A DNA stretch of 64,000 nucleotides, from assembly GCF_044324785.1 (NCBI RefSeq), contig NZ_CP172127.1, one strand, 5' to 3'. Shown here piece after piece: positions 59,778-63,507 of this stretch. Numbering within the stretch: position 1 is the stretch's first letter; each line of letters begins with the position of its first letter. A program made the translations under genes and the position numbers. Origin of the DNA: Escherichia coli (lineage in GTDB: Bacteria; Pseudomonadota; Gammaproteobacteria; Enterobacterales; Enterobacteriaceae). The notes under the pieces are model-generated. The model did not search any database, was not told the DNA's origin, and saw only the letters and a program-made list of their open reading frames with translations.

Positions 59778-59834
59778 TTAATTTGTTGTCTCATGAGGTT
59801 TCGCTAAATCTCATGAAGAGCGCAAAAGTATATA

Positions 59835-59861
59835 AAATCCACGCAATTGCGTGGATTTTTC
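59835..59861 (+). terminator. Rho-independent terminator after ychF
   Basis: ATCCACGC-aatt-GCGTGGAT followed by TTTTC. Confidence 0.75.
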
Positions 59862-60621
59862 ATTTCACCGAGTCCTAACCATTCTTATAACATCCTACAC
59901 TTTTGTGCTTATTGCCTATAGTGAACCACGAGAATAATTAAAGACATAAGTGTTTAGATGACGGATATCTCATTACCAATGAGATAACGTAAGTTTGTGT
60001 TCCACTGCACATCAGACACCTTTTACAGCTGATCAATATTGATTACGCTCCAGTATGCTGACGAGAAAAGGACTTGCCTGAAGGGCAATATCCAGCAGAT
60101 AAAGCCCCAGAATAACGTGATTACGTGCGATCCTGGCAAGATGAAAATGATAACCAGTAGCACGATAATAACGATAAGCCAGAAAATCCATTGATCAAAA
60201 ATGAATATCGATGTTTTTTGCTTTTTCTTATTAGTAATGCAAAAATGGCACATATTGTTTTTGTTATGCAGATACATCAAGCGAAAATCCCATAACTAAT
60301 TAGGATTATTACAAAAAATCTTCACCAAATTTTTTAACCGCTGTTTGTTGTAATATTTTTGCCATATTCATAGTAACGAATTGGAATAAGTAACGACAAC
60401 TTAGGGAATAACTCGATATAAACTCACCTTTGTAAGGGGAATGTTAAATATATATTAATTCCTGTGTTCCTGATTTTGCCCGGTAATAGAGAATTATTCT
60501 CAGAGAAGCTCATCATGATTGCACCATACAGATATCATGATGATAAGAGGATATTATTCATTGACTTAAACAAAATGACAAAATCCATAGACCCATAGCC
60601 TGGGTACTATATAGGAGTGGT

Positions 60622-63507
60622 ATGGGCATCAAACAACACAATGGGAATACCAAAGCCGATCGTCTCGCTGAATTAAAAATCCGTTCGCCCTCCATTCAAC
60701 TGATAAAATTTGGCGCTATTGGTTTGAATGCAATTATCTTTTCCCCCCTGCTGATAGCTGCTGATTTAGGAAGTCAAAATGGCACCAATATTACCATTAG
60801 TGATGGTGACAGAATTACAGGAGATACCGCCGATCCATCAGGAAACCTCTATGGTGTAATGACCCCAGCAGGAAACACGCCTGGCAATATCAACCTGGGT
60901 AATGATGTCACCGTCAATGTCAACGACGCCTCTGGATATGCAAAGGGAATCATTATTCAGGGCAAGAACAGCTCCCTGACAGCTAACCGACTTACAGTAG
61001 ATGTTGTTGGTCAAACCTCTGCCATCGGCATTAATTTAATTGGTGACTATACCCATGCTGACTTAGGCACAGGCAGCACCATTAAGAGTAACGATGACGG
61101 CATCATTATTGGGCATAGCTCAACACTAACAGCCACTCAATTCACCATTGAAAACTCGAACGGTATAGGCCTAACCATCAATGACTATGGCACCAGTGTC
61201 GATCTTGGAAGCGGTAGTAAAATCAAGACCGATGGAAGTACAGGTGTTTATATCGGTGGTCTCAACGGCAATAACGCCAACGGTGCTGCGCGTTTTACGG
61301 CGACAGACCTGACAATCGATGTTCAGGGCTACAGCGCCATGGGGATAAACGTACAGAAAAACTCTGTTGTCGATCTCGGAACAAACAGTTCCATTAAAAC
61401 CAATGGCGATAATGCACACGGCCTCTGGAGCTTTGGCCAGGTGAGCGCGAATGCACTCACTGTTGATGTAACTGGAGCCGCGGCAAATGGCGTCGAAGTT
61501 CGTGGTGGTACAACCACTATCGGTGCTGATAGCCATATTTCTTCCGCGCAGGGCGGTGGTCTCGTAGCCAGTGGTTCAGACGCGACAATCAATTTTTCTG
61601 GCACGGCAGCGCAACGAAACAGCATCTTTTCCGGCGGTTCTTATGGTGCCTCGGCCCAGACGGCAACGGCTGTTATCAACATGCAAAATACCGATATTAC
61701 GGTTGATCGTAATGGCAGTCTGGCGCTGGGTTTGTGGGCGCTCAGCGGCGGTAGAATAACCGGAGACAGTTTGGCTATCACCGGCGCGGCAGGAGCCAGG
61801 GGGATTTATGCCATGACCAACAGCCAGATCGACCTCACGAGCGATCTGGTCATTGATATGAGTACACCCGACCAGATGGCCATCGCAACGCAACATGACG
61901 ATGGTTATGCCGCCAGCCGCATCAACGCTTCGGGTCGTATGCTTATCAACGGTAGCGTTCTCTCCAAAGGTGGGCTAATCAATCTGGATATGCACCCTGG
62001 GTCGGTTTGGACAGGTTCCTCCCTCAGCGATAATGTCAATGGCGGGAAACTGGACGTTGCAATGAATAACAGCGTCTGGAATGTAACAAGTAATTCTAAT
62101 CTCGACACGCTGGCGCTGAGCCATTCAACTGTCGATTTTGCCAGCCACACGTCAACTGCCGGCACATTTACCACATTAAACGTAGAGAACCTGAGCGGTA
62201 ACAGTACCTTTATTATGCGTGCTGATGTTGTTGGCGAGGGTAATGGCGTTAATAATAAAGGGGATTTATTGAATATCAGCGGAAGTAGTGCTGGTAATCA
62301 CGTATTGGCTATCCGTAACCAGGGCAGCGAGGCCACAACGGGAAATGAAGTTCTGACAGTGGTAAAAACCACTGACGGCGCGGCCTCGTTCAGCGCGTCT
62401 TCTCAGGTTGAGTTGGGAGGATATCTGTATGATGTGCGTAAAAATGGCACTAACTGGGAGCTTTATGCTTCCGGGACAATTCCGGAGCCGACTCCTAATC
62501 CTGAGCCCACACCAGCTCCCGCTCAGCCCCCCATAGTCAACCCCGATCCTACGCCTGAACCCGATCCTACGCCTAACCCCACTCCCACACCTAAACCCAC
62601 CACGACCGCAGATGCTGGCGGCAATTATCTCAATGTCAGTTACTTATTGAACTATGTTGAAAACCGTACGCTGATGCAACGGATGGGTGACCTGCGAAAT
62701 CAGAGTAAAGACGGAAATATCTGGCTGCGCAGTTATGGGGGAAGTCTGGACTCCTTCGCCAGTGGCAAACTGAGCGGCTTTGACATGGGTTACAGCGGTA
62801 TCCAGTTTGGTGGGGATAAACGTCTCTCTGATGTAATGCCGTTGTATGTCGGTCTGTATATTGGCTCAACACATGCATCGCCGGACTATAGCGGAGGCGA
62901 CGGTACCGCACGTTCAGACTACATGGGAATGTACGCCAGTTACACGGCACACAGCGGTTTTTACAGCGATCTCGTTATAAAAGCATCGCGCCAGAAAAAT
63001 AGTTTCCACGTACTGGACAGTCAGAACAACGGCGTTAACGCCAACGGCACTGCGAATGGAATGAGTATCTCCCTGGAAGCCGGGCAGAGGTTCAACCTGT
63101 CCCCTACTGGTTATGGGTTCTATCTAGAGCCGCAAACCCAGCTCACATACAGCCACCAGAATGAGATGGCTATGAAGGCGAGTAATGGCCTCAATATACA
63201 TCTGAATCACTACGAATCGCTGCTGGGGCGTGCCAGCATGATACTGGGATATGACATCACCGCAGGCAACAGCCAGCTGAATATGTATGTGAAGACTGGC
63301 GCTATCCGCGAGTTTTCAGGGGATACAGAATATCTGTTGAACAACTCCCGGGAGAAGTACAGTTTCAAAGGTAATGGCTGGAATAACGGCGTGGGAGTCA
63401 GTGCACAGTATAACAAACAGCACACATTCTACCTCGAAGCGGATTACACGCAGGGTAACCTCTTTGATCATAAGCAAGTCAACGGAGGATATCGCTTCAG
63501 CTTTTAA
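60622..63507 (+). CDS. ycgV: Type Va autotransporter adhesin (YcgV-like): beta-helical passenger, Pro-rich linker, C-terminal beta-barrel
   Basis: 961-aa ORF; AGGAG RBS; Gly/Thr/Asn-rich passenger repeats; linker PEPTPNPEPTPAPAQPPIVNPDPTPEPDPTPNPTPTPKPTT; translocator ending …GGYRFSF with terminal aromatic. Confidence 0.85.
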   Translation: MGIKQHNGNTKADRLAELKIRSPSIQLIKFGAIGLNAIIFSPLLIAADLGSQNGTNITISDGDRITGDTADPSGNLYGVMTPAGNTPGNINLGNDVTVNVNDASGYAKGIIIQGKNSSLTANRLTVDVVGQTSAIGINLIGDYTHADLGTGSTIKSNDDGIIIGHSSTLTATQFTIENSNGIGLTINDYGTSVDLGSGSKIKTDGSTGVYIGGLNGNNANGAARFTATDLTIDVQGYSAMGINVQKNSVVDLGTNSSIKTNGDNAHGLWSFGQVSANALTVDVTGAAANGVEVRGGTTTIGADSHISSAQGGGLVASGSDATINFSGTAAQRNSIFSGGSYGASAQTATAVINMQNTDITVDRNGSLALGLWALSGGRITGDSLAITGAAGARGIYAMTNSQIDLTSDLVIDMSTPDQMAIATQHDDGYAASRINASGRMLINGSVLSKGGLINLDMHPGSVWTGSSLSDNVNGGKLDVAMNNSVWNVTSNSNLDTLALSHSTVDFASHTSTAGTFTTLNVENLSGNSTFIMRADVVGEGNGVNNKGDLLNISGSSAGNHVLAIRNQGSEATTGNEVLTVVKTTDGAASFSASSQVELGGYLYDVRKNGTNWELYASGTIPEPTPNPEPTPAPAQPPIVNPDPTPEPDPTPNPTPTPKPTTTADAGGNYLNVSYLLNYVENRTLMQRMGDLRNQSKDGNIWLRSYGGSLDSFASGKLSGFDMGYSGIQFGGDKRLSDVMPLYVGLYIGSTHASPDYSGGDGTARSDYMGMYASYTAHSGFYSDLVIKASRQKNSFHVLDSQNNGVNANGTANGMSISLEAGQRFNLSPTGYGFYLEPQTQLTYSHQNEMAMKASNGLNIHLNHYESLLGRASMILGYDITAGNSQLNMYVKTGAIREFSGDTEYLLNNSREKYSFKGNGWNNGVGVSAQYNKQHTFYLEADYTQGNLFDHKQVNGGYRFSF

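Follow-up and report, generated by a model that had tools for sequence, protein, structure and literature searches.

The Escherichia coli autotransporter gene ycgV, its AT-rich upstream region and the variable ychF-dhaR interval

We analysed a 64,000-nt stretch of an Escherichia coli genome (contig NZ_CP172127.1 of assembly GCF_044324785.1, hereafter the window) and identify the locus at positions 59778-63507 as E. coli ycgV (b1202) together with the control region upstream of it, flanked by the core genes ychF and dhaR, a reading to which we give a probability of about 0.93. Judged from its sequence and a predicted structure, the product is a classical type Va autotransporter with a barrel of some 12 strands, in which the barrel, a pore helix and a beta-helical passenger with a junction domain can all be recognised. 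An initial annotation, made from the nucleotide sequence without database searches, had proposed a type Va autotransporter with a C-terminal beta-barrel at this position, and Pfam (PF03797), NCBIfam (TIGR01414), PDB matches, an AlphaFold2 model and Foldseek agree with that proposal.

The Pfam autotransporter beta-domain (PF03797) covers residues 700-941 (E 7.6e-37), the Pertactin family (PF03212) residues 494-615 (E 1.5e-37) and the NCBIfam autotransporter barrel model TIGR01414 residues 513-961 (E 1.8e-106, 356.8 bits against a cut-off of 16), and a sequence search of the PDB matched Vag8 (5.4e-25), the BrkA barrel (3.5e-23) and pertactin (3.3e-11), as well as the EspP and Hbp translocators. 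The initial annotation had suggested a barrel domain search and a structure prediction of the passenger as checks; the first returned a translocator domain and the second modelled the passenger as a beta-helix. The AlphaFold2 model, built from a 45-sequence alignment (mean predicted local distance difference test score (pLDDT) 84.6, predicted template modelling score 0.69), placed residues 1-44 at a pLDDT below 50; in it residues 48-616 form an all-beta passenger (mostly above 90), 620-654 are disordered, 661-688 fold into a helix and 699-960 make up the barrel. With Foldseek the barrel aligned to those of BrkA and EspP at target-normalised template modelling (TM) scores of 0.77-0.90, and the passenger to pertactin (1dab) at E 7.7e-12 and a target-normalised TM score of 0.56. 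The helix directly precedes the barrel on the same polypeptide as the passenger, and aligns with the linker-plus-barrel units of EspP, BrkA and Hbp.

The gene is an uninterrupted open reading frame (ORF) of 961 aa on the plus strand (60622-63507), beginning with ATG and containing neither a frameshift nor an internal or premature stop, so the 961-aa gene of the initial annotation stands at its original position. Its ranking as the largest gene after narG also holds, as the sole longer ORF in the window (34082-37825, minus strand, 1247 aa) matches the narG equivalog model TIGR01580. Upstream, ychF ends at 59777, leaving a gap of 844 bp (59778-60621). Megablast matched the region to records in which RefSeq labels the gene 'ycgV: autotransporter outer membrane beta-barrel domain-containing protein', the protein shares 97% identity with a 13,508-member E. 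coli YcgV cluster of equal length, and in strain N3 the homologous region (99.3% identical) is annotated dauA, ychH, pth, ychF, ycgV, dhaR. The order pth-ychF-ycgV-dhaR is common to N3 and K-12, the MG1655 arrangement being ychF (b1203), ycgV (b1202, 955 aa, 'putative autotransporter adhesin YcgV') and dhaR (b1201). In the window as in K-12 the gene is flanked by ychF upstream and by a convergent dhaR downstream and has an identical start codon and Shine-Dalgarno (SD) sequence, and the two upstream regions are 95-99% identical outside one indel, at which the distal leader of the window is 75 bp longer (60058-60132). Between the two YcgV proteins 27 of 961 alignment positions differ, comprising 21 substitutions and one 6-residue indel, and the ratio of non-synonymous to synonymous substitution rates (dN/dS) against K-12 is 0.17 for the whole gene and between 0.15 and 0.24 in each mature domain, from which we conclude that purifying selection acts on ycgV and that this strain shows no decay of the gene.

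For the N-terminus the initial annotation had left two options, an extended autotransporter signal or a mis-set start; the layout shared by orthologues supports the former, and the invariant SD sequence and ATG speak against the latter. After an in-frame stop the ORF offers no start before position 60622, and in both the Citrobacter farmeri locus and a related metagenomic locus the ACAGGAGTGGTATGG block is unchanged, as are the SD sequence (AGGAG) and the ATG. Because of these features and the conservation of the N-terminus among orthologues, the start at 60622 does not appear mis-set, and sequence comparison indicates that the annotated ycgV start is correct. The predicted signal peptide consists of a charged n-region of ~29 residues (net +4) and then the h-region FGAIGLNAIIFSPLLIAA at residues 30-47. 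A long n-region, an h-region and the junction AxA/(A)D-[LI]-GSQ (the slash marking cleavage) are kept in orthologues named Citrobacter farmeri, Leminorella, Morganella, Pragia and Limnobaculum, whose extensions have the same length and layout, begin with M-[DGN]-[IM] and run to a basic patch ahead of the h-region; the consensus within the YcgV clade is roughly M-D-[IM]-x-[IL]-[YF]-x-[KR]-[ED]-[FL]-Q-G-K-x5-K-x2-L-x-Q-x-L-A. In Pantoea orthologues the extension is lacking, and a short signal peptide of the usual kind leads into the same mature N-terminus. Against K-12 the signal-peptide codons show two synonymous and no non-synonymous changes. The extended signal peptide region (ESPR, PF13018) was absent from a Pfam scan of the full YcgV protein, and is carried by some more distant autotransporters in the homologue search. 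Together this favours an extended, non-ESPR signal peptide of ~46-47 residues on YcgV, which would make the protein competent for export.

This signal resembles the ESPR type in that an N-terminal extension of ~25 residues lengthens it ahead of a normal n-h-c signal, but the YcgV extension is unrelated in sequence, lacks a PF13018 match and is common only to close orthologues. The ESPR is thought to tune targeting or to slow release from the inner membrane. Tentatively, and at somewhat less than even odds, we propose that the conserved 25-29-residue extension belongs to another class of autotransporter signal extension, independent of the ESPR but with the same kind of effect on targeting or inner-membrane release, in a locus that also serves as a swap site between ychF and dhaR.

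The DNA ahead of ycgV is the unusually long and very AT-rich leader that the initial annotation had pointed out (844 bp, its earlier figure being 840). Its GC content is 0.348 (ycgV 0.499, whole window 0.497), and at scan lengths of 300, 500 and 844 bp alike the lowest GC value of the window falls inside this leader. The minimum, 0.283 over 60164-60463, marks strongly AT-rich DNA, and the published K-12 ycgV-ychF 'promoter island', which we placed on the window by coordinate conversion assuming a 777-bp offset between genome versions, coincides with it (Table 1). In the published table it is marked as bound by H-NS in every chromatin immunoprecipitation (ChIP) study compared (code 'A', PMC3661553 Table 1), and the genes tied to it are predicted to be foreign by one method, that of Nakamura et al. 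(PMC3661553 Table 1); the yfaL upstream region is likewise a promoter island (PMC3661553). The link to H-NS made in the initial annotation thus finds support in H-NS binding to the homologous region, in data from K-12. In avian pathogenic E. coli (APEC), YbdO represses ycgV and shifts a ycgV promoter probe in electrophoretic mobility shift assays, and deletion of ybdO raised ycgV mRNA 4.1-fold (PMC11681634); ycgV was also induced 4-fold in an APEC pst mutant (PMC2648988).

The two halves of the leader have different distributions. The distal part, ~59870-60280, has no counterpart outside E. coli, whereas the proximal 340-400 bp can be aligned with the DNA upstream of the orthologous gene in C. 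farmeri and in a second relative, despite the relocation of these genes: both lie beside a porin gene and an IalB gene near dcm-vsr. The proximal leader therefore appears to travel with the gene, and likely comprises its promoter and 5' untranslated region (UTR). An imperfect palindrome just upstream of the SD sequence, ATAGACCC-N7-GGGTACTAT, is a candidate operator or 5'-UTR hairpin. RNAalifold on three 5'-UTR sequences gave -13 kcal/mol with one compensatory pair, and the single-sequence z-score of -1.76 was not significant. The Morganella (M. morganii) orthologue also lies near dcm-vsr and is preceded by an XRE-type helix-turn-helix gene, of which tblastn found no remnant in the E. coli and Citrobacter leaders. 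A 44-aa ORF at 60464-60598 resembled SfsB weakly (E 0.072) and was dismissed. An Rfam scan of 59600-60800 gave Leu_leader matches below threshold (31 bits, where the gathering score is 50) at the terminator-like hairpin behind ychF, a resemblance generic to a hairpin followed by a U-run, and a miRNA match that we dismissed as meaningless. On a Hadza gut metagenome contig, a ycgV orthologue stands in tandem with a second pertactin-type autotransporter.

The description of the passenger as repetitive holds in a loose sense only. A degenerate motif of 47-57 residues occurs in about four copies between residues 118 and 310, each ending (V/A)DLG(S/T)xSxIK(S/T), and such a motif is typical of beta-helix rungs; the passenger contains no DNA tandem repeat, and self-BLASTP of YcgV returned nothing at E<0.01. 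The proline-rich linker is present as described, with IPEPTPNPEPTPAPAQPPIVNPDPTPEPDPTPNPTPTPKPT at about residues 617-660, and houses the sole true repeat in ycgV, an 18-bp unit at 62539-62600 encoding PDPTP(E/N) units. The window allele has one PDPTPN unit more than K-12 in this linker, which accounts for its 961 residues against 955. A comparison of repeat number across strains, which the initial annotation had recommended for the passenger, did reveal a copy-number difference, but in the proline linker and not in the passenger repeats: among the E. coli alleles compared, the 18-bp/PDPTPN unit was the only one to differ in copy number.

Of known autotransporters, YcgV is closer to the pertactin, BrkA and Vag8 type than to the AIDA-I type. 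With the Bordetella proteins it shares a beta-helix passenger ending in PF03212, a proline-rich region close to the C-terminus of the passenger and a helix-plugged barrel, and BrkA presumably also has in common with it a long, non-ESPR signal peptide. Identity to these proteins is just 16-26%, however, YcgV offers no evidence of RGD-type motifs or of a serum-resistance function, and its regulation is tied to H-NS and YbdO instead of BvgAS. A published phylogeny puts YcgV in group 4 of the biofilm-forming autotransporter adhesins, together with the self-associating autotransporters (SAATs) AIDA-I, Ag43 and TibA and with YfaL/EhaC and YpjA/EhaD (PMC9289746). Like these it is a cryptic E. coli beta-helix adhesin with adhesion or biofilm phenotypes when expressed, but it has no match to PF18883 (the AIDA-type passenger-associated domain, which the database records for some relatives), and it differs from the SAATs in having neither an ESPR nor an adjacent glycosyltransferase gene, its neighbours being ychF and dhaR. 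The NCBIfam equivalog models for MisL, BafA and the AIDA-I family YfaL/EhaC all score YcgV far under their cut-offs, for example 55.7 against 1297 for MisL and 15.8 against 1459 bits for YfaL/EhaC (NF007285).

The initial annotation held that neither the function nor the ligand of the passenger is established. This holds for the ligand, but an adhesion and biofilm phenotype is published: in their passages on ycgV, three reviews report adhesion and biofilm formation upon forced expression and credit Roux et al. 2005 (PMC3796261, PMC9289746, PMC9110714), one of them stating that the mechanism is not known (PMC9289746). The C-terminal unit or barrel of YcgV has moreover been used to anchor surface-displayed cargo when supplied with an exogenous signal peptide (PMC13101318). 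From what is known of the family, the ~46-47-residue signal peptide with its charged n-region would take the precursor through Sec, the ~12-strand C-terminal barrel would be inserted by the beta-barrel assembly machinery (BAM), and the passenger would be threaded outward C-terminus first. The pertactin-type junction domain (494-615) would then fold first and template the ~570-residue beta-helix, helix 661-688 would remain in the pore, and the disordered spacer (617-660) may serve as a stalk holding the beta-helix off the membrane. According to the forced-expression work cited in those reviews, the exposed beta-helix promotes adhesion and biofilm formation. Silencing in this strain would involve H-NS coating the AT-rich upstream DNA, as in the K-12 ChIP studies, and YbdO binding the promoter-proximal 126 bp, as in APEC.

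The population data show that the interval between ychF and dhaR is variable. When 59778-63507 was searched by megablast against 5426 complete E. coli genomes, 4727 contained a match and 3930 (72%) matched over at least 80% of the query, whilst the adjacent pth-ychF segment was present in 5422 of the 5426. At least 99% identity over the ycgV region was found in a single genome (strain N3), compared with 616 genomes over pth-ychF, a disparity that fits the positive-selection signal reported for ycgV (PMC9110714). In 603 records the match was confined to the first ~90 bp after ychF, at 83-89% identity, and in both such genomes inspected a tyrosine-integrase gene lies ~210 bp after ychF. Strain R2 lacks ycgV and has a 27.7-kb island filling the entire space from ychF to dhaR, carrying integrases, insertion sequence (IS) elements, a retron Ec67-family reverse transcriptase, an ABC-three-component system and DUF2339/DUF3999 genes; in strain H6 an IS5-family element (IS5/ISKpn26) splits ycgV and an island fragment lies upstream; and in strain CDC#03-98 the 3' third of ycgV is deleted together with dhaR. 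Truncated proteins form clusters of their own, one of 867 aa (3116 members) whose similarity ends inside the barrel at about residue 857, and one of 716 aa (1256 members) that starts at M240. The common truncation and the missing intact-length copies imply that ycgV is dispensable. From these sequence comparisons the ychF-dhaR interval could be a swap site, with the ycgV cassette and integrase-borne islands as alternative occupants. We found nothing relevant in the literature on a ychF-dhaR hotspot, ychF being reported as an integration site for mobile elements in other phyla only.

Several observations weigh against reading the locus as an exported adhesin with its own silenced control region. 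The h-region, which includes N, S and P, has no more than moderate hydrophobicity, with a Kyte-Doolittle maximum of 1.94 in a span of 15 residues. A 2026 surface-display paper gives YcgV a SignalP 6.0 probability of only 0.47, and its authors label the protein 'leaderless' (PMC13101318). A sigma-70 scan of the leader found 2 sites where 5.0 were expected in shuffles and placed no promoter, the H-NS nucleation motif TCGATAAATT (up to 2 mismatches) matched 68 times in the window, where 70 matches were expected, and was not enriched in the leader, and H-NS binding and YbdO repression were measured in strains other than this one. Truncated ycgV occurs in sizeable E. coli sub-populations, and about a quarter of genomes are without an intact-length copy. 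The SignalP value, the 'leaderless' label, the polar residues and proline of the h-region and the missing PF13018 match would also suit a wrong start or a protein with no signal peptide at all, which would leave the native protein unexported and the gene effectively non-functional. We consider this very improbable: no start lies between the preceding in-frame stop and ATG 60622, AGGAG stands 4 nt ahead of it, the ACAGGAGTGGTATGG block is invariant in the related loci, the only later in-frame ATG, GTG or TTG before the cleavage site is the TTG at codon 35, which would halve the h-region, the orthologues share the layout up to the junction that the short Pantoea signal peptide also meets, and non-synonymous changes are absent from the signal codons. 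If the extension is indeed a separate class within a swap-site locus, it is conceivable, though we would not rate the chance as even, that current predictors miss it in the YcgV clade, and that the 'leaderless' label arose in this way. The leader raises a different question, namely whether its distal half encodes a small membrane protein with two transmembrane segments (60023-60280, minus strand), so that the gap would consist of two shorter intergenic regions. The 84/85-aa antisense ORF has two strongly hydrophobic segments, carries the label hypothetical or 'membrane protein' in certain records from E. coli and Shigella, sits where RefSeq locus-tag numbers are skipped between ychF and ycgV, and has a slightly higher GC content (0.42). 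Yet its named matches are confined to E. coli and Shigella, it has no Pfam family and insignificant NCBIfam matches, and within one species its alleles show A-run frameshifts, premature stops (67 aa), C-terminal frame changes and, in K-12, a 25-codon deletion. The six substitutions that separate the window from K-12 in its 5' half affect codon position 1 three times, position 2 twice and position 3 once (hand count), with no third-position bias, it has no clear SD sequence, and current RefSeq and K-12 annotation place no gene there. A protein-coding distal leader is thus very unlikely, and the antisense ORF is probably a decaying relic or chance ORF and not a gene; the initial description of the leader as non-coding agrees with the current annotations and is qualified by this degenerate ORF. 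A likeness to a zinc-ribbon membrane protein (TIGR04104, E 0.14) was ruled out by the CxxC of the window allele, which is not conserved in other alleles, and by the frameshifted alleles. The 75-bp segment within the ORF has a deletion junction with short CTG microhomology and contains a small hairpin, TTGCCCTTCAGGCAA. Strains other than K-12 that lack it match the region in two pieces at 98%.

The same variability that suggests a swap site could also mean that ycgV is cryptic, functionless and heading for loss, and that the AT-rich DNA is a horizontal leftover at an integration hot spot and not a regulatory leader. The island replacing ycgV in R2, the IS5 insertion with its island fragment, the joint deletion of the ycgV 3' end and dhaR, and the commonness of truncated alleles can all be read in this way, as can the location of the Citrobacter and Morganella orthologues at other loci, the lack of a counterpart to the distal leader outside E. 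coli, and the foreign origin predicted for the associated genes by Nakamura et al. (PMC3661553 Table 1). We judge this unlikely, although less so than either of the alternatives above. The allele in the window is intact and under purifying selection (dN/dS 0.17), ycgV responds to YbdO and to the pst/Pho state, and positive-selection signals such as that reported for it are usual in surface proteins that are exposed and functional (PMC9110714). The proximal 340-400 bp of the leader are, in addition, conserved with ycgV across genera despite relocation, which argues for a function. We therefore retain the reading of an intact ycgV with its own upstream control region; the coordinates of its parts and of further features are collected in Table 1. 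Among these, the published intragenic sigma-54 site IS15 (TTGGCTCAACACATGCA) has a copy within the barrel-coding part of ycgV in sense orientation, and the convergent ycgV-dhaR spacer (63508-63606, 99 bp) has no recognisable intrinsic terminator on either strand.

Table 1 Features of the ycgV locus, in window coordinates.
Feature	Position	Strand	Description
ycgV coding sequence	60622..63507	+	961 aa plus stop; dN/dS vs K-12 = 0.17
Extended signal peptide	60622..60762	+	Residues 1-46/47; predicted cleavage LIA/A or IAA/D
Passenger	60763..62469	+	Residues 48-616, predicted beta-helix type; last part (494-615) pertactin-type junction/autochaperone domain PF03212
Proline-rich spacer	62470..62601	+	Residues 617-660, predicted disordered
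Alpha-helical linker	62602..62685	+	Residues 661-688; helix expected in barrel pore; AlphaFold2 model
C-terminal beta-barrel translocator	62716..63504	+	Residues 699-961, ending ...YRFSF; PF03797, TIGR01414, Foldseek
Shine-Dalgarno AGGAG	60613..60617	+	4 nt before ATG; invariant in related loci aligned
ychF-ycgV intergenic leader	59778..60621		844 bp, GC 0.348; K-12 equivalent 768 bp
Proximal upstream region	60283..60621	+	Aligns at ~70-74% with the DNA ahead of the orthologous gene in Citrobacter farmeri, which lies elsewhere on the chromosome
Promoter-island equivalent	60164..60464		K-12 island 1255333_301 (PMC3661553 Table 1); coincides with lowest-GC 300 bp of the window
YbdO probe region	60496..60621	+	126-bp ycgV promoter probe from APEC, located by primers of PMC11681634
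Imperfect palindrome	60587..60610		Immediately ahead of the SD sequence; conserved in part in Citrobacter
ychF 3' flank	59780..59870		Sole query part matching in about 600 genomes without ycgV; candidate island attachment region
ychF terminator-like hairpin	59834..59859	+	AAAATCCACGC-AATT-GCGTGGATTTT, then T-rich tail
Antisense ORF	60023..60280	-	84/85 aa, two hydrophobic segments
75-bp segment	60058..60132		Absent from K-12 and many other strains; in-frame indel within antisense ORF
Sigma-54 site IS15 copy	62861..62877	+	Exact match to published intragenic site (PMC4591121)

The gene itself, its adhesion and biofilm phenotype, the H-NS-bound AT-rich island, repression by YbdO and the positive selection are already in the literature. 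To these the comparative evidence adds an answer to the doubt over the ycgV start codon, with an extended signal peptide as the favoured reading, and assigns the copy-number difference among the alleles compared to the proline spacer. The most novel points, both modest, are the conserved non-ESPR signal-peptide extension and the possible swap behaviour at ychF-dhaR. The ychF-dhaR locus emerges as a variable slot of the E. coli chromosome, in which ycgV is intact, truncated or replaced by a mobile island, and this variability calls for caution when the presence of ycgV serves as an adhesin marker.

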